A DNA stretch of 63,953 bases, the filler included, from Stramenopiles sp. TOSAG23-6 (taxonomy: Eukaryota): NCBI GenBank assembly GCA_900128565.1. It is 4 parts of 4 records of this genome, joined end to end, with 100 filler letters (N's around TTAATTAATTAA, not from the genome) between each part and the next. Parts side by side here need not be neighbours in the genome. Positions count along the whole stretch, not along the records: positions 16,858 to 33,527 come from LT636090.1; positions 33,628 to 50,248 come from LT636091.1; positions 50,349 to 63,953 come from LT636162.1; 1 more part is not named here. The stretch is one strand, 5' to 3'. Shown here in pieces: positions 16,858 to 63,900 of this stretch. Position numbers and translations under genes: made by a program. Every line of letters starts with the position of its first letter. Position 1 is the first letter of the stretch. The notes under the pieces were generated by a model. It was not told the origin of the DNA, searched no databases, and saw only the letters and a list, made by a program, of their open reading frames with translations.

Positions 16858-16916
16858 TGTTAGGTACAAAATTTCGTACAAAAAAAAAATCATACAAAAA
16901 AAAAAAAAAAACATAC
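16858..16916 (-). mobile_element. family intron truncated by contig end
   Basis: AT|GTATGTTT...GTACCTAACA then N linker; near-identical to 17264-17354 copy. Confidence 0.8.
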
Positions 16917-19900
16917 ATCATTTCACGATTTGATTTGACTTCAATAAACAAATTATACCAATGTCTCCATAGTTGTACTAAAAAATGATGTCGTTTCCGA
17001 ACTTTTTTTTCTGCTAATTTTCTCCGCCACTTTTTTATCATTCCTATTGCACGTTTTTTGTTGATTGAAAGTATAAATTGTCTCACACGACCACTTTTAT
17101 TAGACTTTTCATTCCATATATCAAAAACATTTGTCAATAAATTATTGACATAAAAAGCAACTGCAGCTGCATTTTTGCGTGACTGTAAAACACTCTTGAT
17201 TTTTCGTACTCTCCATTGCACGAAATATTTCGATATGGTACGACGAAGTTGTCCCAATAATACATGTATTTTGGAAAAATATTTCAAAAAAAATTTTGTT
17301 AGGTACAAAATTTCGTACGAAAAAAAATCATACAAAAAAAAAAAAAAAACATACATTCCTCGCGATATTCTTGGTGGATTTTCTGTGATTCAGGTAATTT
17401 ATCCACTTTTGAAAGTGTAATTTTCTATTTTGATGAAGCTGTCGCCATTCAAATTGAGATATTCGAATGTATTATGAAGAAATATTTATTTTTTACGAAA
17501 AAAAAAAAATTGTTAGGTACAAAATTTCATACCAAAAAAAAACAAAATTGAAATTAAATTTTAAAAAACGTACATGCCTACACGAAAAAATTTAAATGTT
17601 TTTGACAAACTTTTCAAATCCCACATGTAATAAATGGCTTCATCCCTTTCTCGTTTACATATGAGCATTTTAGCTTGTTTCCTCCATCCATTAAATATTG
17701 AAAGGACAGCGGCACGTACACTTTTTTCATTTACCTTTTCATACAAACCACCGATAATATTTCTTGTATTTACGAGCTTTTTTGCACGTCTGAAAAAACT
17801 GCGTTGTCTTATTTCAACTTGTGCACGTTTACTTATAGAATTCCGTATGTTTTCTGCATCTAATAGAGGAACTAAAAATGAATTCCAAACTTTCTTTAAC
17901 AATTTTATTCGATAATGTTCAATAGCTATATGTTTTCGACTCACGTCCTGTGTATATGTTTTGCTCTTATTAGGTGAAGGGAATTTGTCTTCATTCATTA
18001 AAGGCATCGAGTTATTGTTACTATTCATTGAATTTTTATTTCCTGAATGATCAATTGTCTTCGTTTCGACTTGTTTAGGAATATCAATATCTTTTGATAT
18101 GTATTTAAAAAAAATAGTTCAAATTTTATATTCGTTAGATATGGAATTTCGTATAAAAAAAAATGGAATTCATGATGAAAACGTATCGAATAAAAACTCA
18201 AAAAAAAAAACTTTTTTTTTGTTAGGTACGAAATTTCGTACTAAAAAAAATCATAATGAAAACGTACATAATTGTATCGAGTGGAAATTTACGTGCTCTT
18301 GGTGTTTCAGCTTCACTAGACTCGTTTTCGCCACTGGCAATTATCCAACCTTTTTCACAACCTTGATTGAATTCTTTCAAAATTCTAACCTTTGTTTTCA
18401 CAATACTTGCCGCATTAGCAATATGTTGCTTATACGTACTTGAAGTTTTTTTAACGGAAATTTTATGTAATATTGGAGTTTTTTGAGGACTACTAGTAAA
18501 CGTTTCTTTGTATTTTTGTGTGTCATTTGAAGCATTTTGAAGTGATTTTTTCTTTTTAGTAATGGATTGTTTTTTTATTGTTGGCGTTTGTAATGAATGT
18601 GAAGATTCGAAACTTTCTTTTTTTATTGTTGGCGTTTGTAATGAATGTGAAGATTCGAAACTTTCTTTTTCTCCAATATGAAAACTCTCCTTCAGTGATG
18701 CTGCGCTTGCTAAGGCATCTACTCGAAAACCAGATCTCAATGCTAGGCTTCGAGCTTTTCTTTGCGATTCTCTTTTTGGTGTACACACCGAAATGAACTC
18801 ATTTTCTAAAGATACGCTTAATACTTTTCTGCCCTCACTTATAGCCTTTGTCATTCGATATTGTTTTTCAGGGGTTTGTGTTATTGATAACGTTACATTT
18901 GGGGTAATCTTTTGTTTCTTTTTTGAAGTTGATAATGTGTTCCGTATAGGTGATGTAATCTTTTGTTTCTTTTTTGAAGTTGACAATGTGTTCCGTTTAG
19001 GTGATGTAGCATTTTGTTTCTTTTTTGAAGTTGACAATGTGTTCCGTTTAGGTAATCTAGTATTTTGTGACGTTTTTATTTCTGGCGAAGTTGTGAAAGT
19101 CGGTTTCACTTCGATCATTTCGTTTATAGAATTTACATTTCCTTCGATCATCTCGTTTATAGAATTTACATTTCCTTCGATCATCTCATTTATAGAATTT
19201 ACATTTCCTTCAATAACAGAGACACATACAGGTGATGATACTTTTTTACGTCTCAACATTCGTGAAGATTGCATCCTCTTTCGAATATCACTTTGCTTCT
19301 TTACAACTTGTGGTGATACTTTAGACTTTTGTAATTGATTTGATTTTCTAGAATCTTTGATTTTCTTCTTTTTGATAGATTTGGCAGAGTTTATTTTCTT
19401 TACTAATTTAGAGAATATTTCATCTTTAGAATCATCTAATTTTTCGTGTGTTTTATCATGTATAGACATTTCTAAATTATTTATTTCGTGTGTTTTATCA
19501 TGTATAGGCATTTCTAAATTATTTCTTGGTTTACGTCTTGCATTAAGTTCTGACTTTATCGTTGCTTCTATTTCTAATTTAAGTCCCGATGAAATATCTT
19601 CTGGTAAAATATCTGAATTTTGTTCATGTGTCAATTCTTGTGGTAGATTTCGTATCGAGTGTAAAATATCTGAATTTTGTTCATGTGTCAATTCTTGTGG
19701 TAGATTTCGTGTCGAGTGTAAAAGTGTGTGAGATTTCATTTGATTTGAGATTTCGATACGTCGATTATGAATTTCCGAATAGCTATTTTCTGCTTTTTGT
19801 TTTTTTTTACGTGTACTTTTATCATGTATCTTTGATGACACGTGTCTTTTCCGTCGAATGTGATTACACGATTGATTTTTTTTTTCGCTCCATTTTAAAT

Positions 19901-21446
19901 GAGTGAAAAAATTATATGGTAATATTTTTCTACCAATTTGATCTGGAGCAGATTTGTATCCAAATTTTCTTTTTCGTCTACGTTTCTTTGGTGTAGTATA
20001 CTTTTTATTATTTCTATTATTTTTATTATTTCTATTATTTTTATTATTTTTATTGTTTTTACTGTTTTTATTGGTTTTTTTCTTTGCTTTTCGTTTCACT
20101 ACATTTTTTTTTAATGTATACGAATGACTATCATCATCATTTCTATCATTTCTTATCGTTTCAATATCAGTTTCTGGCATGTATTGTGAAAAAAAAAATT
20201 GTATAAAATTCGTTAGGTACAAAATTTGGTACAAAAAAATAAATAAATTTGAAATTGATAAAACGTACATTTTCACTAGTAATTGAAAGTCTGGTACAGC
20301 CTTTGGTACACCGAGTGGCTTGTTATATACAAATACAGTGGCATTATTATTCTCTATAGTACTATGATCTGTTTTTGAATTATTGTCTTCTTTTTCTTCA
20401 CCAGCATGAAAAATTCTGTCCGTTACCCGGCGCCATTTCGCTTTCAAATTAGAGATATATTTTTTTTTGTTACGTTTTCTTTCGCCATCTTCATCGAAAG
20501 TTTTATTTGGTTTATTTCCTTCACGATATTCACGGGAAATATTCTTTGGACTATTTTTGGTTGTTGAGGTATCATTTTGATTTTTATCCACATCACCAGA
20601 AATATTATTATTATTATCATCATCATCCTTTTTTCTTGATTTTCCTTTCCAAGAATTGAAAATATTTTGACGCAACTGACGCTCTTTTAATGCTGACCTC
20701 CAAGTTTTCAAATATTTATAAGGGAAATTCATACATCGTTTTCGCCATAAATATATTCCAATATTTCTACATCTTGACCTTTTCTTGGCCCAAATGTTCC
20801 ATAGTTTCAATATACGAGGTGCAGTTATGTCTTTCATCGTATATGAACGCCATGCTGAAAAATGACGAAGCAACTGGATCCGTCTATTACGTGATGCATA
20901 TGGAAGAGTCCAGAACTCAACTGGCATTTCTGAAAGGCATGTAACATGTGACAAAGATAGATGATGAGTTGCGCATAAATTTGGTTCCGAAGACAAAGGT
21001 ACTGAAGTAATGAAAGGCTTACTATTTGAAGTATTCTCGTCAAAACTACTATCATAAGTGGTATTAGTAGCATTTACAGTCCATCGATCTATATTTTTTT
21101 GAAGAATGGGTTTAAAACTATCTTGACTCTGAGTTTTTTTTTGAATACGTAGTGGACTTTTAAAGCCCTGCGGCGTTTCTTGTGATTTCGTTTCAGAAGC
21201 AACATTTAAAACTATCGAAGATATAGCTCTCAACTGATTTGATATTGCAGACTCTGTCACAGCAAAATTGAGGTTATAATCTGGTACTGAGTACTCCACT
21301 TTTCTGTGGAAAGGTTTACTCCGAGTTTTGCGAATACGCGAAGGCAGAGTTGATCGAGGAGGAGTCGGCGGTCCATTAAATGGACTTTTACGAACTCGAC
21401 TAATATTTCGATACGGGCTTCTCGACGAATTACTCTGAATAGGCAT
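16858..21446 (-). CDS. Sfi1-like centrin-binding repeat protein, multi-exon, 3' truncated at contig end
   Basis: repeated F/L..W helical motifs (HFSAWR, FNSWK, FNGWR, FVQWR); five family introns join the 21476, 18028 and 17356 ORFs in frame. Confidence 0.6.
17264..17354 (-). mobile_element. family intron, GT-AT
   Basis: AT|GTATG...CAAAATACAT|; frame restored. Confidence 0.85.
17467..17573 (-). mobile_element. family intron, GT-AT
   Basis: AT|GTACG...ATAATACAT|; frame restored. Confidence 0.85.
18099..18267 (-). mobile_element. family intron, GT-AT, with two tandem element units
   Basis: two RTACGTTTTCAT..TACGAAAT..CTAAC units; removal joins the 18028 ORF. Confidence 0.8.
20179..20268 (-). 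mobile_element. family intron, GT-AT (90 nt, stopless in frame)
   Basis: AT|GTACG...CACAATACAT|. Confidence 0.85.
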
Positions 21447-21804
21447 CACACTATGATTTTGTGATTTTAAAGGCAATTGCCAATCTTAACTGCTAAATGA
21501 AATGGGGTAAATCAACATTAGAGTATTAATATCAGTGTTTTTGAAATAAGTAAACAAGTTTAAACACTTTAGGCGAAGGAGGTACTCCAAAGCAAGGTTT
21601 AAAAATCGAAAACACGAAATCGAAACGAAAGTGCCATTAAATTTTTAAATAATATTGAATTCATTCCAAATTGGTTCTATTTGCTATTGTAGACAATGTA
21701 GAGCAACAGGTAAATAAACATAATACTTTTATATACAAAAAAACTAAATGTGTAAATATTGAATGATAAAGTATACAACTCTGCTTTTGGGATTCGTGAA
21801 GTGT

Positions 21805-22970: not shown

Positions 22971-24436
22971 ATGGACAAAGAGTGCACCAGACTTTCAAAC
23001 AGTCAATGGAAATGCACTCTTTGTACATTACTGAATTGTACAGAGTCGCTAAAGTGTATTGCATGTGGCAATCTTCGCTATGAAGGTAAAGTCACCACTA
23101 GATCAAGATTACCACAAAAAAACATTGGTAAATGTTTTTTGATTAAATGTCCAGAGTATGACGATAAAGATCATGCTCTCAAAGTAATAAGTAGTGATCG
23201 GTTAGATATAGATACAACAAGTTTGAAGTGCCTTTACTTAGTAAAAAATAAAAACTGGGTAGAATGGATAGAATTAGAGGATTTTTCAAATAGGATGGTT
23301 AAGGAGGCTTTCCTCTGTCCATTTTGTAATGGAAAATGTTGTCTTAAGTGTAACAACCTAGGATATTTTCTGGACAAAAAAACAGAAGAAATTACTCCAT
23401 TCAATGATAGTGATAGTGATAGCGTTGACAATTCAATACCAAAGAATAAGAAAAAAGGGAAACGGGGAAGGAAACGAAAAGTAAATCAAATATCTAGGAT
23501 TTCGTCATTCAACAATAATAGTCCTAGTACAATTTTTAACAAAAAAAGTGCACGTTTTCATCATTCATTTCAATTTTTTTTTTCATAGAAAATTTTGTAC
23601 CTAACAAATTTCAAAAATTTTGAAATATTTTTTTACAATTCATCATGGTTGCTCAAATATACCACGATCAACATCATCTAACCTACAACTTTCTACACTT
23701 GATGGAAAGTATATTTATGCAAAATATCCTCATGCCACTTGTAAAAAAGATACATATGCAAAAGTTTCAATTTGGAAAAAAACGAATGATATAAGATATT
23801 TTTTATTTTTTTTCAATTTCGAATTTATTTTTTTTTTCAAAACATTTTTTAATTAACAAATTGTACAAAAAAAAATATTTTTTCACAATCTATGTATATA
23901 TTAGAATGGAAACATACAAATATTGAAACTGCACTAACTACAAATCAATTCGAAAATTATTTTATAGCAAAATGTTTTCGTTGTGAGTACTGTGGATTTC
24001 ATTCGGATAAGATGCATCTACTTGAGGAGCATAAAAAAACATGTAAATTTTATTTTTTTTCAATTTCAAATTTATTTATTTTCGTACGTAATTTTGTACC
24101 TAATGATTTTTTAATGATTTCTTGTTTTTTCACAATACATGTACACCAACTCCAAGAAATGAGAGATTATTTACACAATCCAATGATGCAAAAGCTCATT
24201 GTTTTCGTTGTGGTGAAAAGATAAGCTGTGTAAATGATAAATGTAAATGGACAAAAATTGAAGGTGAAAACATAGATGTTAAAATAACACTATGTCATCA
24301 TTCAACTGGAAAAGACTGTAATATTTTTCGTAAAAACCGCGAATTTATGCAAGTTATTTGTGGCGATTGCAATAAGAAATGTTGGGTGTGTCAAGACATT
24401 GTACTTTGGAAAAATTCCAAGGGGGAATCTGTCTAT
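22971..24436 (+). CDS. zinc-finger protein (RanBP2-type + C2H2 + Cys-rich), multi-exon
   Basis: WKCTLCTLLN...CIACG; CEYC...LEEHKKTC; three family introns give in-frame joins. Confidence 0.7.
23550..23643 (+). mobile_element. family intron, GC-AT
   Basis: GCACGTTTTCATCA...GTACCTAAC...CAATTCAT|. Confidence 0.75.
23796..23893 (+). mobile_element. degenerate family intron, apparently AT-AT
   Basis: ATATTTTTTA...CAATTTCGAA...TTAAC...CACAATCTAT|; frame restored. Confidence 0.55.
24043..24140 (+). mobile_element. family intron, GT-AT
   Basis: AT|GTAAATT...CACAATACAT|; frame restored. Confidence 0.85.
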
Positions 24437-24540
24437 GTACATTTTATTTTTTTTCAATTTTGAATTTATTTTTTCATACGAAATTTCGTACCTAACAAAT
24501 TTAAGGTTTTTTTTTTTTGAAATATTTTTTCAAAATACAT
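24437..24540 (+). mobile_element. family intron, GT-AT, possible chimeric junction
   Basis: joins Zn-finger exon to GPCR TM7-like exon. Confidence 0.8.
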
Positions 24541-26348
24541 TCACTTTACGTGTGGATGGCAATATCTGTGCCTTCAATTGGATGGTTAAACGCTCTGGTG
24601 TATGGGCTTACAAATAAGCGTATTAGCCGAATGTACAATGATATGTTAAGACAATCATCGATGTATTCTGGTGCGTCTTCTAGATCGAGGGAAAGTGTAT
24701 GTTTTATTTTTTTTTTAACAAAAAAAACGATTTTTTTTTCGTACGAAATTTTGTACCTAACGATTTTAATGTTTGAAATATTTTTTCATAATCCATAGTC
24801 TTACTGAAGGTTTGTTGCAAAGACTTCCTCCAGGTTTAGAAGCAGCGCTTGCGTTAACTCCTAGTACTTCACATGAGCCTTATATTGAAAAAGAATTTGA
24901 CAGACGTCCTCTTACAACTAGTCGCCTGGCGAGTCATGGTACGTCAGATGATACTGTAGAGCTTGGACTTGGTCTATGTGAAGGAGTTGCAGCAGCTGTT
25001 GAAACTGGTAAATTAGTTTTAGGTAATGTTAGTCAAGAAAGTCAAAATGATGAACATTTAAATGAACATTTAAATGAACATTTAAATGAACATTTTATGA
25101 AAGATGGCGATAATAGTAGTGTTTATCGTGGCCATTCAATAACTAGATTTGCTAGTAATGAAGATGACCCAAACATAGGTCTTAATATAGACAATATGGT
25201 AGGCTTGAATAATAGAACAAGATTTCCAAGTATTTGTCGAACAACAACAAATACAAGTAATACATCAAATGAATTTCCAAGTATATGTCAAACAATGACA
25301 AATACAAATAATACAAATGTTTGTACTAGAAATGAAAACACAAATTGTTGTCCAAAACCAGATGTTGATAGTACTAATCTTCATAATGTACGTAGTAAAG
25401 ATAAATTTGTTGATAGTACTAATCTTCATAATGTACGTAGTAAAGATAAATTAGTCGAGGTTGGTGATACGAATTCAATTTCGAATGTACAAAGTGTTAC
25501 TGCTCTGGATAAAATGGATAAAATGTCGCCAGTGATACGATTTAGCCTTTGTAAAAAAGAAGAAACGAATAATGATAATGCATTGCCCTCGATTGCTACT
25601 GGTGTCCCAAAAAATGATTCTTTTAACTATGGTAATCCTTCAGATATTCTTGCTCTAGGTGGAATGAGCCGAGGAAATTCTATTCAGCAGATTGATTCTA
25701 ATTCGGATCTTACTAGTGTAAAATGTAATCAATACAAAAGCTTCAAAAGCAGTCGTCGTAAAAGTGGACCGTCAGGTGCTATGGCAAAATCTGGAGATAC
25801 TCTTATTCGTGTCACAAGTGAAAATAGCATTTCCACTCTTCCAAACAATCGACGTGTTAGTTTTAATCCAAAGTCATTGACTGAAAAACGAATTGATAAT
25901 GATAGAAATAGAAGAACATCAACACTATCGACGATTAGTGGATACTCAGGTGCAGCAATTAACACTCTTGGAAGAATTCGTGTTCGAAGTCGTGGGACGC
26001 ATTCAGGTTCAATGTATGTTTTATTTTTTTTTTTTTTACAAAAAATCGATTTTTTTTCGTACGTAATTTTGTACCTAACGAATATTTTTGGGAAATATTT
26101 TTCCAAAATACATGTATTCTAGTGATACACCGAAATCGAATAAATCGAAAAAAAGTAAGCGATATTCCGTCAGTCGACAAAAATATCGGTCACAATCACG
26201 ATATAGTTCTCGATTAGGCTCTGATGAATTTGAAGCCAATTTAAGAAATGAATTGAATCCTCTTGATTTAGTGGCTGGGTTAAATTTAGAGATTTCACCC
26301 AAGAAAAATAATCTGAAAAGAAAGGATATACATATTGCTAGTGAATGA
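24541..26348 (+). CDS. C-terminal part of a cAMP-receptor/GCR1-like GPCR (TM7 + long tail)
   Basis: VPSIGWLNALVYGLTNKRI resembles TM7/helix 8; two family introns restore frame; TM1-6 absent. Confidence 0.55.
24697..24796 (+). mobile_element. family intron, GT-AT
   Basis: GTATG...CATAATCCAT|AG; the adjacent AG is out of frame. Confidence 0.8.
26014..26113 (+). mobile_element. family intron, GT-AT
   Basis: AT|GTATG...CAAAATACAT|; frame restored. Confidence 0.85.
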
Positions 26349-26669: not shown

Positions 26670-28385
26670 ATGGGTTCTGGCAGAGAACGCATTTTCCTAG
26701 ATAGTACAGTATCCAAGTTTTTGTCGCATTTAGTAAGTCACAGTCGGTGCAGTCAAGTTGGTTTTCTGATTGGTCAAAAAGTAGATAGCAACGTGTTTGT
26801 TGTTCATGTTGTTCTTCTAAAGAAATCACATTTCAAAACCAAGGATACTCTACTACATATAGTATCGGATGTTAATGTATCTTTGCCGGGTGGATTATCT
26901 ATTGTTGGTATTTTTATTCTTGATACTGTAGGAAGTACTGTTCCAGTGAGTGTTGTGGGTGATTTTGTTCAAAAGTGTTCAGAACCATCTGATCCATCCT
27001 TATTTACTGAATCTTTAGTAGTGCTTCGAAAGATAACAAAGTCTCACAAATATACCTGCCGTATATATAGGGGAAATATAGATAGTTATCCTATTGATTT
27101 CAAAGTTCAAGATTGTCTTGATGATTTTCAAGCCTTTCGGTGTAAAATTAATTTTTGCGAAGTTGTTGTTTTGCCTCACAATGTCAACTTTACACCTAAA
27201 AATTCTTTAGAAAAGCAAAACTTACAAAGCACGATTCAAACGAGTGTGTATAATGCAATATCACCAACTTTGGATTCTTTGGTATTTAGAGTATCTGGAG
27301 AACTAAACACAAATATAGAAACAAAAGTTTCAGAGCTCAGTCCAGCTAAGCATAAATTGTTTGAAAATGATATTTTTGATTCTAAAGGACTCTGTCATAC
27401 ACTCTGTCATACTTTAGATGTATTTTCCCGTGGATTGTATGGTGTTATTAATAGTGTTTCAATACATTCAAATAAGGGAATTATTGTCCAAATATGGCTG
27501 GCTCATCCTGTCATTTTTTGGTTGCATAAAAGTCAAAAAATATCAAAAGCTTCAGCTCTTGCTCTACGCCAGGATATGTGTACGTTGTTTTGTTTTCATT
27601 TCCAATATTGATTTTTTTTCATAAAAAAATTGTACCAAACGATTTTTTTTAAACTTTAAAAAAAAATATTTGTTCACAATGTATATCGATCCGTGAGTGA
27701 ACGCTTGCGTATTCTATTTATATCAAACACGTGGGCAAAATGCTCTTACAAAGGCTTGAAGATATCATTACCGTGTAGAAGTTATTTTGAATTACCTTAT
27801 CTAGATTCTTCACAAATAAAACAACGAATGTTTGGCATATTTTATAATGATTCAAGCGCTAACCCTAGTGACAGTGTTTCTATTGTAATGGGTTCTACTA
27901 TGTTAGGATATACAGATTCATGTGTTTCATATAGTATGGAAATACCATTAGCTGGTGAAAATTTTAATACTGTTGCATCATCTGTGTGTGCAGTGCTACT
28001 TAGTCAATATTGGCAGTCTAATCTTTGTGTTGATGATGAAAAAAAAAAAAAAAAAATGATACATTTTAAAAAGAAAATGACAATGAACAACGTAAAAAAT
28101 ATAAAGAATTATGATGATAATGATGATTGGAATTTTGAAAATGTTGATTTTGATCGGTGTGATAATGAGGAAGAGCAGAAGAAAGAACTAGAAGATATTA
28201 ATTTGGATGCTGAAGTGGAAAGATTATTGAGGGAAGAGGATGAAGCAAATGCGACGAAAGTAAAGGAAAACACGACACGAGGAGATCATTATAGCAGTTC
28301 TTCTAGTATATTTATTGTCGGTGCATTATTTGTTTGTACTCTTGCTATTATATTTGAAAGTTTGGGCGTGGTTAATTTCATCTGA
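26670..28385 (+). CDS. ODR4: ODR-4-like tail-anchored protein, 2 exons
   Basis: VGFLIGQ, LPGGLSIVGIF, ALRQDM|YRSVSERL, LPCR, C-terminal TM. Confidence 0.7.
27580..27684 (+). mobile_element. family intron, GT-AT
   Basis: GTACGTTG...CACAATGTAT|; frame restored. Confidence 0.8.
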
Positions 28386-38245: not shown

Positions 38246-49072
<10,827 letters not shown>

Positions 49073-50248: not shown

Positions 50249-50348
50249 NNNNNNNNNNNNNNNNNNNNNNNNNNNNNNNNNNNNNNNNNNNNTTAATTAA
50301 TTAANNNNNNNNNNNNNNNNNNNNNNNNNNNNNNNNNNNNNNNNNNNN
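50249..50348. other. artificial contig linker
   Basis: 100-nt N run with TTAATTAATTAA. Confidence 0.97.
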
Positions 50349-50745
50349 AATAAAAATATTACTTGAAGACTAAGATTTTTTGAGATATAGTCAGCGTGCC
50401 GGTATATATATATAGGACCTATATATGGTATCCTACCTCGTAGTGTTGCCGTGTCCTTTTCGAGCGAGGCTTACCCACGTATGACACAATAATGCCATCG
50501 ATTATTATAAGAGTGTGCATCTTACTCTTATTCCTAACATGGCAACGTCAAGTCATTGCTGCAACTATACCAATAGTTACAGCTTCTCCTGAGCCTGAGG
50601 AAGACATTCACGTAGCAACAACTGATGCTTCCACTGAGCCTGAGCCTGACGGAAAAAAAATCGACGTCAACCCTAAGCAAACTATTGCTAGCGAGTTTAA
50701 GGGTGCGCAGCAGATTATATTAAGAGTGATGCAGCGCTGAATTTA

Positions 50746-53700
50746 TTGACGCCTACAGTGTGGGAAGACGAACATGATCTCGATCATGTAATTCGCGGTC
50801 AGATATCAGAACATTCAGGTTTTCCAGAAGAAGTGATAGACGCTTTGAATCTACCTTCAAAAGATTCAGTGCACAACACGATATGGAGGGGGAGTAGCGA
50901 ACATCACGACATGCCTGATCATTATGAAATGCCCGAACATCTATCACCCGCGCAGCGTGACTCGATGCAACGCCCACAGGACGTGAGTGACGACCAGTGG
51001 CACGCTCTGGCAATGCCGGTCGATGCCTCGATCAAGAGGAATGAGCTACTGCTCATCGAGGATGCAAGGCATGGCAAAGTGGAAACAGATATTTCAAAAC
51101 CGATATTTTCTCCTTCTAAAACGTATACTTTTCTATATTTATTTGCACTATTTGGTCAACCGGAAGCATTTGAAAAGCAACTAGATCGTATTATAGGTGG
51201 CGGTATGGATATGATAGAGGAGTATACCAAAGAAATTGCAGAGTTATTTCTGTTAGTAAATAAATCTTCAAGGGTCGACGGATTTCCATTTGTACATGGC
51301 AAAGGGACCGCATACCGAAATAGTATTCGAGAAAAACTTCAAATGATACTTATACGAAGCATTCCACCATTTCTTGCGGCAGCCGTCAAGTTAGGTGATG
51401 TTGCATCTGTTTTAATATTTCAAGAGTTTATAGACAAAAGTTTACGAGGAAAGGTTTTAGTGAATGCTCTGAGTATTCTATATGATTCCCTTTTTTATAA
51501 ACATACTGTGTCTCCTGTGGAAAGGACACATAAGTTAAACTTCATGCAATTTTTGGATGATAGCAAACTAACAGAAGGAAAAGAGTATACGGTATCAGAG
51601 AACGGTAGTACCGCTGTAAATAATGCTTTCTTGGATCAAAATGGATTTTATATCCCTATATTCGACAAAAAACGATCGGACACAGTTTGGGTAAAACAAA
51701 ATTTACCAACCATCAAATCTGATCCTTCTATTGGTACTAACTTTGTGTGGCGATGGACTGAAAAGACACTTGACACTGATGTTTTGACGTATTGGGATAT
51801 GAAGCAAAAACATCAAAAAAATGTCCCCATCATTGAGGTCAGTAATCATATGATGATAGTGTTGATCTTAATGAATCGAGAAACGTTTGACGAAGATTTA
51901 GGTAAGGATATGGAAGAACTTAGATTAATGATAAAAGCACAGAATGAAGCCATACCGACTATGGATATAAACAAATTAGATAGATTTAGAAATCATTTTA
52001 GGGAGTATATCAATTTTGAATATCTTGACGCTGCCATACAAGGTATACCTGAAATTCCTGAATATTCCTATCTATACATGATAGTATATCAATCTATAAT
52101 TTTGCACATAAAACAATTAAGTATGGATGAAATCGAGACTTTGCTTTGTGAAAACGTTTCACCAAAAGTACCACATCATCCAGAACTGCTTACCTTTATA
52201 TTCAAATTATTATCTAAAGAACAGGTTGTGGAGTTATTTGGTAAAAATCAAGAGTTGGAAAAAAATATTATGATGCTTGCTTTGCAGGAGGATGATTACT
52301 TTTTCCTTGAAGAAATTATTGACAAGCATAATGAGGGTTATATTGATGCTGTAGGCCGACGATTATCCTTATCTGATGAAGAAGAATATTCTTTCCCAAT
52401 AGGTCTTCATCCAGAGTCGATAAAGTACATGATTTCAAGGAGAAGCGTTTTTTTCAAAAATCATAGAGGTGATGACTTTTTAACAGTGCTTGAATATGCA
52501 GTTGCAAACTTGGATATGGATCTAGTAGAATTTCTTTTGGAAGAGGGATCAAACCCATATAAGAATCTAAATCGCCGGAAGGTGTTTGAATTCCTTTTAG
52601 GTTTGGGAAATCCTTTTGGGATTGACAATGTACGAGATACACTCGTCTTGGAAATAGCAACATTATTAATAAAACATGGAGCTGCAGATGTTTTTGTGGA
52701 TATTACTCCAGTAGAATTGTATGAAAAATACGAAGGATTACAGAGATTGCTCAACTCAAAAGATCAACTGGTACTGAGCTTTCCAGGATCTCAGGAATGC
52801 AGTATTTCAACATATTGGTTAAAGTTGGTTGTCGAATGCACTAAACAGCCAAGTCATGATATACATCCGTCTAATGTAGACCGCGTTGAGTATATTCGTC
52901 GTATTGGTGCTGATTTGAAGGGCAATGAGCCTATAAGTATACTTCATGAAGCTGTCATGGGAGGTGATTTTGAAGTGATTCGCAATTTACTTGAACATAG
53001 CTGGCAATCATCTATTGTCAATGAAGTCAATGAACACGGCAAAACACCTCTGGATATTGCGACTTCTTTGTATATAGAGCACGAAAACAAATATGGCCGT
53101 TTCGTTTCTTTTTTCACCAAGGAAGAAAAAAGAAGACGAGAGAATATAGAAATGATTCGAGACACAATAATTAAATATAAGGGAATATCATGTTTAAAGA
53201 GACAGAATTATGTTACAAGCGCGAAAGAAATGTTTCTGAAAATGGAAGCTTCACAAGAAACTCTTAAATCGGCTCTAATGGAGTTTCAAAAATTGGAAAA
53301 GAAAGAAAAGAAATCATCGGGTGGAAAGAAGAAGAAAAACAAAAACAAAAAGAAATCAAAGAAGAATGAACCACGTGATATAATGCTGAAAAAAATAAAG
53401 AATCTTGAGGCTGATGGGTTAATATTTAAAGACAAGTATTTAAAATTCTCATCAATGCTAGAGGAATTTGGAATTCCTAAAACAGATATTTTCAAGGAAA
53501 ATACTAAATTGTGTCACACTCAATTGGAGCCTGAACCTGAACATGAAGTACAATTGGGATCACCGCCCCATACTAAGATGTATGCCAATTCGGGAGAAAC
53601 CTGGCAAATTGAGCCTGAACCTGAACATAAAGTACAATTGAAAGAAATCTGGCAATTGGGTAAACCTGGGTCCGGGTCTATTGTTGAATGGATGCAGCTA

Positions 53701-56700
53701 CCGGTGGAACAAATCGGTCGTTTTGAGCAGTGGTATAAACACATAGGAAGTAAGATCGATACAATTGACATTTTACAAAAAGTTGGTTCGGGCAAAGGTA
53801 GCTTTGGTCAACAGGTGTGGAATATGTTCACCAAAGAACCCAAGAAGGTGAAAATATTTCTTGATGGAATATTCAATTCAAGCGGGCTGGTGGACGCGGA
53901 ACACCATGACAACTTATCATCTCCACGAACTTTAGGGAGTATATCAAAGAACGGCGCTCTCCTAGAGACATGGATAGCTTCGTGGGTAAAAATTTTGCAA
54001 TCCATGAGATCTGCTGAGACTAATGACAATGTCCTTTCTTATGCAGCAAGTCATACACAAAGAGAAACTGTAAGAAATTTACTTGAATATCCTTGTTTTC
54101 AAAGACTTATCGACGATGTGAATCATAATGGCTTTACTGCATTACACATTGCTGCTGGCGTCGGCGACATTGGTATGGTAAAATTACTTCTTTCGAATGG
54201 TGCTGATCCAAATATTAAGGCCAAAGTCAATTTCGATACAAGATCATGTGCTCTTACTCCATTAACCATTTCTGCTGTTGATGGTTCAACAGAAATTGCA
54301 CAATTACTTATTTCAAATGGCGCTGATGTAAACATTGTATCGGAAAATGGAGTTTCTGCGTTGACTTGTGCTATTAACTTCAAACATTATGATTTTGTAA
54401 AAATGTTGATGCAATCATCAGAGCTAAACTCGGAAATTGTAAATAAAGAATTTCTCAGTAAAAAGAAAATAAAAACTGTTCCCCTAATGCGTGCGATAGC
54501 TGTCGACCACCCCAAAGATATTGTAGAACTATTAATCAGGAAAGGTGCAAATGTTGATTATACAGATGATGCTTTGGAAACGCCACTTACGTATGCTTGT
54601 AGGAAAGGAAATAATAATTTGTCACGATTACTAATAGAATCTGGAGATAAGGTATATCTAAAAAAAATGAAAACAATTGACGACTTGACCCCATTAATGC
54701 TTGCCTCTCAGTATGGGATGATAGATGTTGTAAAGTTGCTTCTTTTGCATGGTGTAGATGTAAATTTTGAAAGAAAAAGTGATAAACGTAATGCTTTGAT
54801 TTATGCTATCATTGGTAAGCACACTGAGATTGCGCAACTTTTAATTGACAAGGGAGATAAAAAATTTGTGCAAACAGAACAAGGTTTCACCCCGCTTATG
54901 TTTGCTGCACAAAGAGGTCTTTTGGATATTGTAAGCTCATTACTAGATAATGGTGCTGATATTAATGTGATGATTACAGATTCAAGTACTGCATTAAGTT
55001 TTGCGTTAAAATGGAGTGGACAGGGTGGTGTTGCATCAGTTGAAGAATTATCAAGAAAACGAGATGTTGTAAGACTACTTATTGCTCGAGGTACAGTTAT
55101 TAGAATCAAGGATTGGTTTTTGGTAGTTGAGGAATGGTTACCAAGAAAACAAGATATTGCAGAACTAATTTTTGCTCAAGGTACAGTTATTGGAAGCAAT
55201 GAGTTGTTGGAAGTTGAAACGCTTCAAAATGAAATTGTGCACATGCTGCTTGAAGGGGACGCAGATCCCGACTGGACTTTAGCTAATTGCGGGAGTAACT
55301 TTACAGCACTTATTGTTGCTTCTGTAGTAGGATCTGCAGAAATAGTTGCAACATTACTTAAAGCAGGTGCTGATCCCAACAAGCTCGATAGACATCGTAA
55401 TTCCGCTCTTATGCTTGCTGTAAAAAATGGACATCTAGAAATAGTTGAAAACCTCATTGCTAGTGGTGCTAAAATTAGTCATTCTGGTGGTCGATGGGGA
55501 AAATCTAAGGTGGAATTGACTGTCTTAGCTCTTGCTCTACTCGCTAGGTTGACAGACTATGCAATTGTAGAAATATTAATTGCCAATGGTGCTAATGAAG
55601 ATGATCTAGTCTCTGTTGAAGGTTTTGATATGAGCGATGACATTTTATTCATACGAATGCTCAGAATTATCGATAATAGTAGTCCATCATCACCATTTGA
55701 TTGGTTACATCTAGTAGGTGATGCTTCAGATGATAGCAGCTATGAAAATAATGTCGCTGAAAGTAGTGGCGATGATGAAGCAATCAATGAGGAAGAACTA
55801 ATATTAATTAATCTTTACAAAGGTTACCATGGCGCATCTAATGTAGATTTGTTTAAAGACAAGAAAGAAGCCGAAGAAAGAATTAAAAAAGAAAAGAGGA
55901 GAAATGATACTACATCAGTAAGACCAACAAATGATACAGTAGCGGGTGACAGTGATATAGATGTATCACGAGCACTGCCCAAAACAAGTGATATTGAAAG
56001 GACGTTATTTATATACGATAAAGTTGAAAAATGGCGTAGGAATCCAAAAAATGCACATCTTATGAAAAGTTTTGCAAAGCATTTACAATACATTTCAAAT
56101 GGTGAAATACGGAGTGGGTATAAACCATTAGAAACTGTTACTGGTGTAATGGGTAATAAATTATGGGAAGCCCCTATTACTGGAAAGCAAAGAATTTTGT
56201 TTGAATTTCCTGAAAGGCTAGAAAATGGTACAATATCTCCTGGACATGTATGGGACGTAACTCCGCAGCACGATGGTCATGGTGGTATTGCAGATCGTGC
56301 CGAAAAACTAACATCAACAGCGACACGTGCCAATTTGAGAAAGCAAGCATTGATTAGAAAGGATGAGTTATCAAAATATGGAAGTAGGTCACTGGAAGAT
56401 GCTCATGATATTGGTTACGACAAAAAATTGTATGGTAAGGGTCAATCGAAAAAATACGTATTGAAATCGAATCATTCAGGCTCATTGGACTGGGAATCTC
56501 AATTAAGTGAAAAGGATTGGAAAATTCATCAAAGGTTGTCGGACGAAGAGCGAAAATGTGTAGATATTGCAGGATTTTGTGAATTGGACGGTCGAGCCGG
56601 AACGGGGAAGACAGAGATCACAATGTTTAGAATGATACTTAATGCAAATAAAGCTGCTGGAGAGGATCATTTTATCGCATTGAATGAAGGAAGAAGAATG

Positions 56701-58925
56701 TCATCTCATGTTGATACATTTGCTGCAGTGGAACCAGAACCAGAAATACAAGAACCAGTACCAGAGTATCATCAATGTCGTCAAGTATTTATAGCAAAAT
56801 CTCTACATTTGAGTGAAAGTGCTGAAGATCAAATGCCTGATGCATATTTACATGACCCTTTGACATCAATGGAGTTTTTACCAGTAACCATTAATCCTTT
56901 TGAACAAGAATGGCTTAAATCTCGCGACAAAAAAAAGATTTCTTTTGTGGAAAGAATTGAAAGAGAAGCAAACGGTGATATGTCTAAAGCACTACGCCAT
57001 GCTATTGACTTTGAGGAATCTGCGGCTAAACATGGTGGCCATATTGACTATAAAATGTTTAAAGAGCAATATGAAAACTTTACTGTTGGAAAATCAAAAC
57101 ATACGTCTAGTGTACTACAAGGTACCTGTGAATTATCTGCAGAAGTTGTGTGGACGCAAATAAATACAAATATCAAAGGTTCATTTCAGTCGTTTATGGA
57201 GGGCCGAGAATTAACTCTTGACGAATATCTAGCCCAGGGCACACGAAAGGGATTGTTACAGTTTAATGCTAAGCAAAAGAAAGCAATTTATGCCGTATTT
57301 TTGAGGTACGAATCTTTAAAAACAAGTTCTTCATTTGATGGTGTAGATTCTGGGAGGAAAAAAATATGGTATGATGATATGGATCGAATTTTAGATGTTG
57401 TTCGACGTTTGAAAAAATTCGAAAAACATTTTCCTTTTGTCATAGAATTTGGTAAGAATACAATGTGGAAGAGCGGTCGACACCCATTTGATTATATATT
57501 CATAGATGAAGTTCAAGACTTACCTCCAATTATTACTGCTCTTGCTCGTTGTGTTGTCGGAGGTAGTCCAGATAACATTACTGTAGCTGGAGACCTTGCA
57601 CAGCAAATAATACCCGGAGTAGCATTTACTTTTGACAATATTCATAATATTATCGCTCGTTCTGAAGATGGTTCCCGTATTGTAGGTTTTACAGCATCGT
57701 CGAAGGAAGGTGCGAATAGAAAGCTGCAAATAAATTATCGTACACATGCTCAAATGATTGAAAGTTCCTCTACGATCATGTAGGTTTTATTTTTTATCAA
57801 TTTCGAATATATTTTTCGTACGAAATTTTGTACCTAACGATTTTCTTTTGAAATATTTTTCCAAAATACATTCGCCTTTTAGAAAACTATTTTCAACTAC
57901 CAAGGACTCATGCTGATACCAGTGCTATTACAGAGAGATCTGGGCCTACACCTAAAATATGGCGTACAAATAATAAAGAACTGATAGATGAATTAGCGCC
58001 TGGAAATGTTCTACTTTTCAAAGATGAGCAATCAATTCAAAGATTTGAGAGAGAGTTTGAGGAAAGATTAGAAATGATACAGAGAGAAAAGGAAAGGTTA
58101 CAATCAATAAAAGCAGATCCAAAAAGGGTTGGCAAGACGGTCCATCTTGATTCTCAATTAAAAGAATTGCAAATAAGAGAAGAAGCAAGCATAAGGCGAC
58201 AGGAGAAGGCGAAGACGTACACAAAACTTACTGTACGTGAATCGAAGGGTTTAGAGTATGGCAGAGTTGTTCTTGTAAATTTTTTTTCATATGCTGATGA
58301 GAAGTATTGTAAATACTTTCGTGCATTATTTACTGGGACAGTAACTGATAGGCATAAAAAAAGTTTTGAGGATGATCCTGATTTGTATGATGGACTTCGT
58401 AATGAATTGAGATTGTTCTATGTAGGAATGACTCGAAGCATTACAGAATTATATATAGTTGAAACAAGTGAAAATAGTTGTCAGAAATCAGCGTTTGACT
58501 TCTTTTTAAAAGCAAGAAACGAGGACGATGGCGAAGTGCGTAAATTATTCGAAAGGTATGCTCCAACAAAAAAAGGCATACANGGTAGTCTATTTACTGT
58601 ANGTATTAGTAAATCAAGTTTAATCAAACAAGGGTCACAATTGATGATTTTATCAAATCAATCAAAGGAACATAGTCTCAAATATTCAACTGAAGCAAAA
58701 AAGTTATTTGCATTAGCCGGACGATTGGACCTAGTTGATAAAATAGATGCTTTTGCNTCNTGTACTTCCTTGCCAGAAGGTACTAATNATGATGTTTTTA
58801 TTGAGTATATTGATACATGTATGAAATTGGGTTTATTTGGCAAAGTCATTGAAGTAATTAAAGCAAGAAAAAATCCAAAGTTTTTATATATTATACAGAA
58901 GATACAACGTTTGTCTGCACCCTGA
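50746..58925 (+). CDS. TRANK1-like ankyrin-repeat / UvrD-like SF1 helicase, 2 exons; true start uncertain
   Basis: many ankyrin repeats; GRAGTGKT, DEVQD, AGDLAQQI, INYRTH, then after intron ESKGLEY and ELRLFYVGMTRS. Confidence 0.85.
57780..57871 (+). mobile_element. family intron, GT-AT
   Basis: AT|GTAGG...CAAAATACAT|; joins helicase motifs IV to V/VI in frame. Confidence 0.92.
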
Positions 58926-60107: not shown

Positions 60108-61601
60108 TTATTTATTCATTTCTCTTGATAATGTTGCAGCAATCAAGAGACTTTTTGCAATCCTTGTAATCGTTCCAGCTTTACCATCACCTGAAATAAT
60201 ATCCAAAGAAGGATCAAATATTTTCTGTTCTAATAAATCATCTAAAGNAATCCGAAGTTGTTTAAATACTACAGCAGTCCTAGGAGGCACTTGNATATGT
60301 ATTACGAAAAAATATTTCNTNAAAAANAATNTTTAGGTATTTTGTTTTTTACGAAATTTGAATATAGTAAAAAAAAAATATCGTCCTAAAAAAAAAAAAC
60401 ATACATTAATCCATCCATCAATAACAATACGCCTTTGACTGTGTAACACATCAACAGCATCGTGTCCAGCTGCAAATAACAATAATGCTTCGGGTGGTAC
60501 CATGGTAAGCTCTCGAAGGTACACTTTTGTAGTTCGAATTTTGTCAAGATAGATAGACCATAAACTATCACTAGCAACACCAATGCATTGTGAAAAAATA
60601 TNTTTTTTTGTAAAATTTGTTAGNTACGAAATTTCGTACGAAAAAAAAATACTTCGAAATTGAANACGTACACTCCTCGATGATCACTANTTTTACATGC
60701 ATGNGCAACAGCTGATGATGGATGAAGATGAACAATCTCACCACTTTGTTCTGTGACGATTCTCCGAGATTTTGTAATGGACGGTTTTTGAACATTGACA
60801 ATACAAGGGTATATATTGNGAAAAAATATTTAAAAAAAAAAGAAATCGTTAGGTACAAAATTTTCTAACNAAAAAAAAAAAATAAAATTCATCATTAAAA
60901 AGTACATAAACCTGCGACAATAACAGCTTTCACAACAACAGCAATATTAGCGTTTTCATTNAATTCAAGTGAAGTGTCCAAATCTCTTGAAAAAGACATT
61001 TTACTCTTTTTTTTTGTATGTTTCAAATTAGTTTTTTGTTTAGATGGTAGGAAACCTATANTGCGTAAATGTCCCATCAAATCTTGTTTTTGATTTCTCA
61101 TACTACACAGTGTATACATTGTGAAACAATATATATTTTTTTTGGTTNAAAAAAAAACGTTAGGTACATAATTTCGTATGAAAAAAAAATACGTAAAGAA
61201 TTCAATTTTGAAAANGTACATGATAATTTAAGAAATTTTTCCGACAAAATTGTTGAGAATACTTATTCCCATGTATATCGACCACATTTCGCCATGTCCA
61301 GTATGCGTTTACTATTATTAACAAATCCGATAGCATTTCATTTTTTTCTTGCCAGAAAGAAGTATTGTGAAAAAATATTTCAACACAAATCTAAAAAAAA
61401 TTGTTAGGTACGAAATTTCGTACGAAAAAAAAACTAAATTAGAAATTCATATAAAACGTACAACTTTTTGCAAATGAAATACGAGCTCGATCGGCCTCTG
61501 CACGTCTGCCCATAGGTACTACAAANGGTGATTTGGCATTCATTGCAACGGCAATAGTGGAAATTGGATCTAGACATCTAAAAATTGTTCCATAAATCAA
61601 C
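60108..61601 (-). CDS. DEAH/RHA RNA helicase C-terminal part (HA2 + OB fold; DHX36/57-like), 6 exons
   Basis: MLIYGTIFRCLDPISTIA, SDLLIIVNAY, AGLYP, IHPSS, YLRELTMVPP, IDGWI after removing family introns; helicase core absent. Confidence 0.88.
60297..60404 (-). mobile_element. family intron, GT-AT
   Basis: restores DGWIN|IQVPPRTAV. Confidence 0.85.
60583..60671 (-). mobile_element. family intron, GT-AT
   Basis: GTACG...CACAATGCAT|; frame restored. Confidence 0.8.
60811..60905 (-). mobile_element. family intron, GT-AT
   Basis: restores conserved AGLY|P. Confidence 0.9.
61114..61219 (-). mobile_element. family intron, GT-AT
   Basis: restores NFLNYH|TLCSM. Confidence 0.88.
61360..61461 (-). 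mobile_element. family intron, GT-TT
   Basis: TT|GTACG...CACAATACTT|; frame restored. Confidence 0.85.
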
Positions 61602-61703
61602 ATATATTTTGGAAAAATATTTAAAAAAAAAAAAACTAAAATTTGTTAGGTACAAAATTTCGTACGAATAAATATTTCGAATTTGAAAAAAAATAAAACA
61701 TAC
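61602..61703 (-). mobile_element. family intron at pyruvate kinase / DEAH helicase junction
   Basis: 5' flank is PK (NETDG), 3' flank is DEAH (MLIYG). Confidence 0.85.
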
Positions 61704-62735
61704 CATCAGTTTCATTTAGAATATCTTGAAAATTAGATAGCCCTTCTTGATTTTCAATTTTTGCAATAATCTTGATTCGAGATGATTGATCGCCAAGTAG
61801 TTTTCGAATCTCCAAAATATCACTTCCTTTGCGAATGAAAGATGCAGCAATCATATCTATTCTGTTNTTGCATCCCCAGTTGATAATATCGTGTTTATAT
61901 CATTTTCAAAAATATTTCAAACATTCAAAATTTGTTAGGTCAAAANTTTTTTTTTTTTTTTTNTTTTTTNTTTTTTTGTTTTTTGTTTTTTTGTTTTTTG
62001 TTTGTGTACAACAAGAAATTGAATCTAGGGTTAGGATTTGAAAACGTACATCTTTTTCTGTTAAGGTAGGAAGATCTACAATCACTCCGGGTAAATTCAT
62101 ATTCTTTCTTTCACCTATGGTTGCATCATTCATGACAGTAACCCTGATACAAGTATTATAAAAAATATTTCAATTTGTTTTTCTGTTAGGTACAAAATTT
62201 CGTATGAAAAAAAAACAAATTTGAAATTCAAAGTAGACAACGTACAACCATTTTCTGGATGACAACTATCGACTGTCAGTACAAGAGCACCATCTGCAAC
62301 TAAGATTTTCTGTCCCACTGCTACTGACGTTGGAAGACTCTTATATGATACAGCTAAACGAGAACTGTTACCCTTGAATGAATAATCCGTGGTCAACTCT
62401 AACTTTTGAAGAGCTTTAAATGTCACTTTGCCAGANTCACTTTCTAGAAATCCCGTTCGGATTTCAGGACCCTTTGTATCCAACATGATTGCAACATTTG
62501 CATTAGGTCGTTGTTTTATCGCTAGCTNTAAACGCTGAAGGCACCCGAGGTGTCCTGCATGATCTCCGTGGGAAAAGTTAAAACGAGCAACNGTCATGCC
62601 TTTATCAATGAGTTTCAATAGCATTTCGACTGACCAACAAGATGGTCCAAGTGTGCAGACGATGCGCGTCTTCCTTTTCGTGATATCCGTTTCATGTGAT
62701 ATAGTATCCATATTAATTTTAACATTGTCCCCCAT
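61704..62735 (-). CDS. PYK: pyruvate kinase, N-terminal ~half
   Basis: [53 protein letters not shown]; ends at NETDG. Confidence 0.96.
61897..62049 (-). mobile_element. family intron, GT-AT
   Basis: restores LTEKD|KHDI. Confidence 0.88.
62151..62245 (-). mobile_element. family intron, GT-TT
   Basis: TT|GTACG...ATAATACTT|; restores [11 protein letters not shown]. Confidence 0.88.
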
Positions 62736-63135
62736 ATTTCTTTTCTTTTCCAGCACACTGTAAGACAATAAAGTGATCTACTTACTACACAAGCAAAATT
62801 TGGCTACACACACACAGTTTTACGACAGAACAGACAGAGAGCACCAGTCAGTCAAACACGCGCTCATCAACNAAAANTTNGANTCNAAAAAAAAANAAAA
62901 AATAGCNAAAAAATACTGAAAAGATAACTTCCGAAGTTCGGGACTAATATTATTTCATACGAATTTTTCCTACCTAAATAGTCCAATCTCAAAACGGATC
63001 TTTTCTCCAAATGGATTTTTATTTTTTACAATAAGTACAGTTACAACACACTACAAACAAAAGAAGAAAGATATATTTAGGACTGTCGACACAAACATCA
63101 AACGCATCATCAAAACNCATCAAAAGTTCAAAACC

Positions 63136-63900
63136 ATGTCAAAAAACGCAAAAAACGAGACAGAAAAGACAAAAAACTCATCGAGCTCCTCTGAATTNAC
63201 AATTGAGCATAGTATTGGAGTGTTAGATGTCGAAGATATTTTGACGGAGACTGAAGCAAGGGAATTTTCCAGTATACATTTGGATGATAATTTACTTGCT
63301 GCAGGACGTGAAGATAATGGAACTTATTTCACAGATACATTCTTTGCTTTAGCTGCAATACAAGAAACTAAGGAGAATGTACTATTTGCATCAAATTGTC
63401 AGTTGAGTCTTTGTCTGGAAAGACAGCGAGAACTACTCACTCGCAAAGGTGCTCGTTTACTAATGACTAGAAAAGCAATATATGTGAATGATATTGTTTT
63501 GGAGTTTCCAGAACAATCAGAAAAATCCGGAAAATCTTCAAAATCTTCAAAAAATTCATCAAATGAAGATGATCATGTATCATTTTTTTGTCATCAACTT
63601 ACACTGGAAAACTATTTATATCCGTCTGAGGGTGGTACGTTTTCATCATGAAATACTTTTAATTGTTTTTTTTCGTACGAAATTTCGTACCTAACAAAAC
63701 AACAATTTTTTCGAAATATTTTATCATAGTATATGAGCTGTTTTTGATATTCATTTACTAGAGTGTGGGAAAGAGGAAAAATTAGAATTCTGGAAAACAC
63801 TCGCCAGTTTTGTACCTGTGAAAACAAACAAAGAATACAAAGCATTAAAAATGGCAAAAACGATCCACAAGAAAGCTGAGACTGTTGTTGGAGAGGTGAT
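63136..63900 (+). CDS. hypothetical protein, multi-exon, runs off window
   Basis: exon 1 63136-63634 joins open exon 63735-63900. Confidence 0.6.
63635..63734 (+). mobile_element. family intron, GT-AT
   Basis: GTACG...CATAGTATAT|; nearby AG would give a premature stop. Confidence 0.8.

Follow-up and report, generated by a model that had tools for sequence, protein, structure and literature searches.

The window, by which we mean the whole stretch of 63,953 nucleotides from the genome assembly of Stramenopiles sp. TOSAG23-6 analysed here, is A+T-rich eukaryotic DNA (GC 0.28-0.40) in which four contigs are joined by linkers of 44 N, TTAATTAATTAA and 44 N at positions 16758-16857, 33528-33627 and 50249-50348. 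The last contig contains numerous single N (dozens from 58583 on) and is referred to below as the low-quality contig. The genes in the window encode the ciliary protein CCDC39, a WD40/EF-hand protein, an ankyrin/UvrD-like helicase, mTOR, pyruvate kinase and a fragment of a DEAH helicase, and nearly all introns in the window are copies of one repeat of ~100 bases.

The intron family

A preliminary description of this DNA had read the introns as one repeat family of the introner type and suggested a profile of their consensus. With an nhmmer profile of the family core, 44 non-overlapping matches at E<0.5 were detected in the window. For each copy, the 5' end was set at the donor motif and the 3' end two bases past the ...TAC anchor; these last two bases are referred to as NN. 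A copy was retained only where its removal joins two open frames, giving 37 complete curated introns. Left out of this set were the copy at 61602-61703, which lies at a chimeric join, the copies at 16858-16916 and 63901-63953, which are cut off, and three fragments outside coding introns. The copies are given below with the last two bases of the upstream exon before the slash and NN after it; P0001 and P0002 are database proteins aligned to mTOR, and P0005, P0010 and P0022 database proteins aligned to pyruvate kinase.

4968-5123 (+): family intron GC/AT with ATATGT start; 5' end uncertain, GTATGT at 4873
5736-5847 (-): family intron GT/AT, beyond the range of the preliminary description
16858-16916 (-): family intron, exon end AT, 3' part lost into the contig linker
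17264-17354 (-): family intron AT/AT, exon 2 begins GTA
17467-17573 (-): family intron AT/AT
18099-18267 (-): single intron of ~1.7 tandem family copies, AT/AT
20179-20268 (-): family intron AT/AT
23550-23643 (+): family intron GT/AT with GCACGT start
23709-23893 (+): 185-nt intron AA/AT, its 3' half a family copy lacking a 5' site of its own
24043-24140 (+): family intron AT/AT, exon 2 begins GTA
24437-24540 (+): family intron AT/AT
24697-24796 (+): family intron GT/AT
26014-26113 (+): family intron AT/AT, exon 2 begins GTA
27580-27684 (+): family intron GT/AT
29539-29628 (-): family intron AT/AT in the WD40/EF-hand gene
33042-33143 (+): family intron GT/GT with ATACGT start; the upstream GT is usable as donor if the cut is moved by 2
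33282-33372 (+): family intron AT/AT, 92% identical to 57780-57871
36781-36875 (-): family intron AT/AT
38936-39037 (+): mTOR intron 1, GA/AT, gap-free junction against P0002
39113-39198 (+): mTOR intron 2, AT/AT, gap-free junction against P0002
39878-39980 (+): mTOR intron 3, CT/AT, gap-free, split Cys codon restored
42121-42267 (+): mTOR intron 4, AT/AG, canonical GT-AG yet with family motifs
44895-45007 (+): mTOR intron 5, AG/AG, gap-free
45590-45751 (+): mTOR intron 6, TG/AA, diverged copy, 3' end uncertain by one codon
46117-46281 (+): mTOR intron 7, AT/AG, diverged copy, gap-free
46748-46840 (+): mTOR intron 8, AT/AT, split Trp codon restored; P0001 reads through it
47194-47295 (+): mTOR intron 9, AT/AT; P0001 reads into it
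47509-47662 (+): mTOR intron 10, AT/AT, gap-free junction
48770-48922 (+): mTOR intron 11, AT/AT
57780-57871 (+): family intron AT/AT with GTAGGT start in the ankyrin/UvrD-like helicase gene
60297-60404 (-): family intron AT/AT, low-quality contig
60583-60671 (-): family intron GT/AT, low-quality contig
60811-60905 (-): family intron AT/AT in the DEAH-helicase-like gene
61114-61219 (-): family intron AT/AT
61360-61461 (-): family intron TT/TT, putative end, junction in a variable loop
61602-61703 (-): family copy at a chimeric assembly join, excluded from counts
61897-62049 (-): pyruvate kinase intron AT/AT, gap-free junction against P0010, P0005 and P0022
62151-62245 (-): pyruvate kinase intron TT/TT, repeat reaching TTGTA; end given by the best, gap-free alignment
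63635-63734 (+): family intron TG/AT; a cut moved by 2 (AT-AC type) gives a stop codon
63901-63953 (+): family intron truncated by the window end, exon end AT
16020-16081 (-): family fragment (palindrome and branch motif) outside long open reading frames (ORFs), family ends absent
36306-36375 (-): family fragment, 3' part replaced by a pyrimidine run ending TTTTCAG
33722-33796 (+): degenerate, weakly matching family fragment that precedes an ORF, E=0.021

The consensus of the 37 introns is GTAYGTTTT at the 5' end, ...YGTACCTAAC at the branch motif and ...AAATATTTTTYCAMAATAC followed by NN at the 3' end. The introns are 86-185 nt long (median 102) with an A+T content of 80%; 23 lie on the plus strand and 14 on the minus strand, all in sense to their gene, which follows by construction from the frame-based selection. 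The 5' dinucleotide is GT in 34 introns, AT in two and GC in one, and the exact donor GTAYGT is present in 23/37, the exact CTAAC in 28/37 and TAC directly before NN in 23/37. The branch motif lies at a median distance of 38 nt from the 3' end. NN is AT in 30 copies, AG in three, TT in two, GT in one and AA in one; the final three bases are CAT (24), TAT (6), CAG (2), CTT (2), CGT (1), AAG (1) and AAA (1), and YAT or YAG was scored in 33/37. The upstream exons end in AT (22), GT (6), TT (2), TG (2) and five singletons.

On these 37 curated copies, the shared consensus and the 24 matches between NN and exon end reported in the preliminary description (20 AT/AT, two TT/TT, one GT/GT and one AG/AG) were reproduced. 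The range of 16858-63734 that it had given for the family does contain copies but was too narrow, as copies are also present at 4968-5123 and 5736-5847.

Individual copies show further features. Intron 18099-18267 (-) consists of a 5' copy with a truncated 3' part followed by a second copy starting ATACGT, and resembles a tandem or nested insertion. The fragment at 36306-36375 (-) may be a copy with an acquired conventional acceptor or, alternatively, an intron of an untranslated region. Telomere-like CCCTAA units are present inside introns 42121-42267 (+) and 61897-62049 (-); in the metagenome contig L001, telomere-like units lie beside the gene at ~2250-2330 in both orientations (CCCTAA and TTAGGG).

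Resemblance between copies

Pairs drawn from the 29 copies no longer than 115 nt have a mean identity of 0.72 compared to 0.55 in shuffled sequences, and 58% of them lie above the highest shuffled value. Up to 92% identity is shared by introns that belong to unrelated genes and lie on different contigs (33282 vs 57780). Moreover, copies that are alike in the 5' spacer tend to be alike in the 3' spacer as well (Mantel r=0.33, p=0.002, 27 copies), and sub-families are recognizable by eye: some copies carry a T-run/CAATTTC 5' part and others a CATCATGAA part, while three copies have the TTACCTAA block and the ACCAAAAAAAA block together. The exact 16-nt palindrome GTACGAAATTTYGTAC is present in 8/37 introns, placed just upstream of the branch motif, and its variants, judged by eye, are not compensatory. 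Towards the 3' end of mTOR, in the second half of the gene, copies have diverged but retain donor, branch motif and 3' motif, and we conclude that these are the functionally kept parts of the introns. Constraint alone does not account for the family resemblance.

The competing explanation to which constraint is central holds that these are old, immobile spliceosomal introns in a lineage whose spliceosome demands long signals, from the donor through the branch region and 3' motif to a YAT acceptor, which would make all introns look the same, and that AT at the exon end is donor context rather than half of a duplication. In its favour, every intron found, including the diverged ones in mTOR, keeps all three motifs, which are thus functionally constrained; of the 13 copies in which NN and exon end differ, 10 have AT as NN; and mobility was not seen directly. 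By contrast, this explanation leaves unaccounted for the 85-92% identity of spacers between unrelated genes, the correlated variants in the 5' and 3' spacers, the direct TT/TT, AG/AG and GT/GT pairs, the intron made of ~1.7 tandem copies and the family fragments outside coding introns. We consider it quite unlikely.

The family also occurs outside the window. In seawater metagenomes, depth at core position 36803 was 160,254 (X3) and 56,281 (X4) compared to ~2-9 in adjacent exon bins; because metagenome depth sums all contigs and organisms, the resulting factor of ~10^4 should be read as an order of magnitude rather than as a number of copies. With a 21-nt core pattern that gave one locus in metagenome_contigs, none in genome_contigs and none in viral_contigs, an additional AT/AT copy was detected in the unrelated metagenome contig L001. 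In total, the identity of up to 92%, the spacer correlation and a core depth of ~10^4 times that of exons bear out the earlier reading of the introns as one repeat family and show that the copies are related by descent.

A genome from a single cell or metagenome that was assembled through a high-copy repeat could in principle contain collapsed or chimeric introns with borrowed flanks. The copy at 61602-61703 (-) is an instance: a pyruvate kinase exon (...NETDG) runs through it out of frame into a DHX29/DHX36-like DEAH-helicase exon, fusing two genes, and we conclude that this copy is an assembly chimera formed through the repeat; further joins in the assembly may likewise be incorrect. Similarly, contigs of the independent runs X3 and X4 end inside young copies, and the last contig is full of single N. 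As an explanation of much of the pattern, however, artefact is highly improbable: exon-intron stretches are reproduced by independent metagenome contigs, removal of the introns gives long stop-free frames that can be aligned to orthologues, and the loose-end consensus of other copies has the same junctions, ...CACAATACAT^G and AT^GTATGT (the caret marking the boundary).

Intron boundaries and splice signals

Removal of the 11 curated mTOR introns gives a stop-free frame of 3148 codons. When the resulting protein was aligned to P0002, 8 of the 11 junctions were gap-free, five of these eight belonging to GT...AT introns, and in the remaining three the alignment was interrupted on or close to the junction, by 1, 3 and 4 residues. 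The split Cys codon at 39878-39980 and the split Trp codon at 46748-46840 were restored to residues conserved in P0002. In pyruvate kinase, both junctions were gap-free against P0010 and P0005, and for the TT/TT intron at 62151-62245 the proposed end outscored the other in-frame ends (three tried). We conclude that GT...YAT boundaries have good support at the protein level from the orthologue alignments of mTOR and pyruvate kinase. Between the branch motif and the intron end, AG is absent in 28/36 copies. Judged by these sequences, the splice rule would be GT...YAT with YAG also accepted, as in three copies, all of which carry the family motifs.

The 20 AT/AT copies could formally be cut as AT...AC, in which they resemble AT-AC introns of the U12 and U2 types. 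With the cut placed two bases upstream in this manner, only copies with AT at the exon end are accommodated, and 15/37 exon ends are not AT; moreover, the terminal AT is more conserved than the preceding AC, and a stop codon is created in the copy at 63635. The AT...AC cut thus fails, which argues for the GT...YAT rule. U12-type introns have the donor ATATCC or GTATCC and the branch site TCCTTAAC ~10-26 nt from the 3' end; the predominance of GTAYGT and the median branch distance of 38 nt reported above argue against minor introns here.

The database protein closest to the mTOR exon is P0001, which has the source label EukProt 'GSMAST32' CDS; a second mTOR relative, P0002, is 51% identical, and no relatives of similar length were found for the 898-aa mTOR exon. 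At the mTOR locus (38246-49069 (+)), P0001 is translated through intron 46748-46840 and into intron 47194-47295 and skips real exon sequence. Since P0001 includes translated intron sequence of the window itself, it probably represents a model of the same mTOR gene, and its reading through introns indicates that standard GT-AG annotation evidently failed here. The organism is taken to be a MAST-3-like (MAST, marine stramenopile) heterotrophic stramenopile, the sole basis being the source label of P0001.

Pyruvate kinase has a closest relative with 64% identity. A single exon of 2360 codons at 50701-58925 (+) encodes many ankyrin repeats and a UvrD-like helicase that resumes past intron 57780-57871. 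The ORF at 18222-21485 (1087 codons) contains several tandem coding-repeat runs at 18500-20100 (-) and has no Pfam match. A scan of the window with Rfam gave no match and hence no small nuclear RNA.

Flank repeats, proposed insertion and comparison with introners

The preliminary description had proposed that NN is a duplicated target whose rare forms co-vary with the exon end, and had suggested a comparison with shuffled flanks. Across the 37 copies in the window, NN equals the exon end in 24 compared to a mean of 18.2 in 300,000 shuffles (p=4.5e-4), and for the four matches other than AT p=9e-5. Because AT is self-complementary, AT flanks do not separate a direct from an inverted repeat, and only the rare pairs can do so: both TT/TT pairs are direct and not inverted, and in the pyruvate kinase copy at 62151-62245 the direct repeat extends to TTGTA. 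Thus, the proposed co-variation stands in the direct sense, although the excess is weaker (p=0.04) once the low-quality contig is removed. The inverted flanks ATGTA...TACAT described earlier are uninformative, AT being its own complement, and the inverted ends reduce to GTA/TAC. The earlier proposal that the duplication supplies the acceptor whatever its sequence is not upheld: with YAT or YAG in 33/37 and AT in most of the mismatched copies, the acceptor looks selected rather than free.

The bases around the junction are also biased, with C at -3 in 11/37 (p=0.048) and G at +1 of exon 2 in 17/37 (p=5e-4). A 4-bp CATG duplication was rejected, as C at -3 and G at +1 occur together in just 4/20 AT/AT copies. 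Where exon 2 starts with GTA, as it does after 17264, 24140, 26113, 33143, 39980, 62151, 5123 and 23893, the direct repeat reaches 5 nt in several copies (ATGTA, TTGTA). The excess of GTA and G at the start of exon 2 suggests that the insertion site tends to resemble the donor end of the element itself; a longer or variable duplication, a target preference or an RNA-level mechanism may be its cause.

Results of this analysis are the existence of the family and its structure of descent, the protein-level support for GT...YAT boundaries and the excess of direct repeats. The introner reading of the preliminary description is thereby supported in part, whereas its claims on the terminal inverted repeat (TIR) and on an acceptor of any sequence are weakened or not upheld. 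From these results we infer transposition at the DNA level, target-site duplication and spliceosomal removal, and we favour, as likely though far from certain, a family of introners resembling miniature inverted-repeat transposable elements (MITEs) in a MAST-3-like stramenopile, with a non-AG acceptor. According to this model, a short non-autonomous mobile element with the ends GTA...TAC would have spread through genes and would be removed by the spliceosome. The element would bring a donor of the yeast type (GTAYGT), the branch site CTAAC, which in younger copies follows the palindrome, and the T-rich 3' motif AAATATTTTTYCAMAATAC. Insertion would duplicate 2 bp of target, mostly AT, and the spliced intron would comprise the element and the downstream copy of the duplication; because this copy would leave with the intron, the reading frame would be restored exactly. 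The T-rich CAMAATAC motif may set the second splicing step two bases downstream, such that the acceptor would be YAT and not YAG (30/37), ~38 nt past the branch motif, at a position dictated by the 3' motif of the element rather than by the first AG. Copies in which the duplicated bases made a poor acceptor may have drifted to AT or AG, or may have been lost.

Several observations weigh against this interpretation. The direct-repeat excess is real, yet it rests on four rare pairs, two of which lie in the low-quality contig; with this contig removed, 18/29 copies match (p=0.04) and two rare matches remain (p=0.03). A 2x2 test of AT against non-AT was not significant (p=0.095), NN and exon end differ in 13/37 copies, and the TT/TT junction of 61360-61461 lies in a loop that is 9 residues longer than in DHX29, with a putative end. 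Since at least one copy is chimeric, mis-assembly may have affected some of the flank pairs. GTA opens exon 2 in 8/37 compared to 2.2% at same-phase control positions (p=1.2e-6), which a plain 2-bp duplication does not predict. In a cruder test, linkage of donor position 4 with the type of 3' motif was not significant (p=0.18). The inverted ends consist of GTA/TAC alone (3 nt), and six copies fold no better than shuffled sequences (z -1.28 to +0.52); of the short terminal inverted repeat described earlier, GTA/TAC is thus present but as 3 nt only, with no stable fold in these six copies. A Pfam scan of 26 of the 35 listed ORFs of at least 180 aa gave no transposase domain, in agreement with the preliminary description, which had found no transposase in the window. 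Empty sites or presence-absence variation were not seen; X3 contigs bridge mTOR introns 1, 4, 7 and 10, and all four are present. Finally, no spliced RNA was seen in the RNA runs X6 and X8, which offer short contigs only and no bridging spliced contig, and record 31 of X8 and record 24 of X6 are unspliced across intron ends. Among the joints listed for these runs, repeat cross-matches dominate and there is no clean intron-sized skip.

Two further candidates were rejected. The ORF at 49200-50063 (-) contains three Myb/homeodomain-like repeats of ~55 residues (W..AE.AKLKEL...NPRPTY); these Myb/helix-turn-helix-like repeats come without a DDE domain and with an HTH_32 match just below the cut-off, and the ORF was not accepted as a transposase. 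An RNA helix joining the intron ends was discarded given that the six folded copies do no better than shuffled sequences and that TT/TT is direct and not complementary.

A different mode of mobility would dispense with the duplication: the copies might have moved at the RNA level, by reverse splicing, reverse transcription and recombination, or, with no duplication, by rolling-circle or other insertion into sites such as A^T or ones resembling AT^GTA; in either case, the flank repeats would reflect the choice of target. This is consistent with the sense orientation of all 37 copies, although that follows in part from their selection, with exon 2 starts of G and GTA that make the target resemble the donor of the element, and with the lack of a long TIR and of a transposase in the window. 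However, the last two bases of a fixed intron should not track the exon end, and the two TT/TT pairs together with GT/GT favour duplication; we regard such duplication-free mobility as unlikely. Helitrons insert between A and T without duplication; they begin with TC and end in CTRR, with a hairpin placed 10-12 nt before the 3' end. These hallmarks are absent here: the copies are bounded by GTA and TAC(+NN), their palindrome sits just ahead of the branch motif and thus a long way from the 3' end, and the TT/TT pairs argue for duplication. Tc1/mariner MITEs have a TA duplication and TIRs of tens of bases; here the flanks are AT and not TA, and a long TIR is absent, leading us to reject this type too.

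Full-text searches of the literature gave no description of this family; supplements, which lie outside such searches, might list it. In a term search of the main texts of the MAST genome papers PMC5778133, PMC12614181 and PMC8163842, introns are mentioned in the methods at most, and the main texts of the introner surveys PMC9860276 and PMC12130899 mention neither MAST nor stramenopiles, although their supplements might.

Comparison with known systems follows the accounts in sections of PMC11282704 and PMC7789003. In Micromonas pusilla and Aureococcus anophagefferens, introners (Huff, Zilberman and Roy 2016) are flanked by 3-bp duplications and combine clear TIRs with canonical GT/GC-AG boundaries (PMC11282704, PMC7789003); some described introners lack TIRs (PMC11282704). 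Like the Micromonas and Aureococcus introners, of which there are thousands, the copies described here are short similar introns in unrelated genes, would be non-autonomous and would restore the frame on excision, with one splice site borne by the element and the target-site duplication completing the second; they differ in the 2-nt repeat, the 3-nt inverted ends and the YAT acceptor. The MITE-derived introns of Fritillaria borealis (Henriet et al. 2019) are diverse and mostly start with AG (AG-AC, AG-AT) (PMC11282704). The copies share with them an apparent transposon origin, non-AG ends including ...AT and ...AC, TAC at the splice site and an apparently tolerant spliceosome, but have a canonical GTAYGT donor, a CTAAC branch site and a single dominant family. 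The introner elements of Amoebophrya have inverted repeats of 8-20 nt in hairpins, direct repeats of 3-5 nt and very variable ends (PMC7789003). Shared features are repeated non-canonical introns, short direct repeats across the borders, the lack of a linked transposase (here in the window) and a marine protist host from the same kind of sequencing project; by contrast, the copies here have no stable fold and uniform donor, branch and 3' signals. An element of the Amoebophrya type was rejected because the hairpin pairing the ends is absent from the minimum-energy folds of six copies, with z near zero. Four features set the family apart from these systems: its YAT acceptor goes with a canonical donor and branch site, the repeat has 2 nt, TIR and fold are all but missing, and a single family lies behind nearly every intron.

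Of the sources of mass intron gain, introners have the best support, and those of Fritillaria and Amoebophrya with non-canonical splice sites show that parasites of the spliceosome can retune it. A textbook donor and branch site combined with an AT acceptor in four of five copies make the present family a clean natural experiment on 3' splice-site choice. As a tentative, wider proposal, essentially the whole intron complement of the lineage may have been replaced by this single introner family, with ~10^4 copies, and the spliceosome may have shifted to a YAT acceptor that is read from the element-borne 3' motif and not from AG. Since GT-AG gene callers misread these genes, as in P0001, proteomes and functional inferences for an abundant group of ocean grazers are likely distorted. 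If the replacement of the intron complement and the YAT rule are true, a transposon would have rewritten the 3' splice-site rule of its host.

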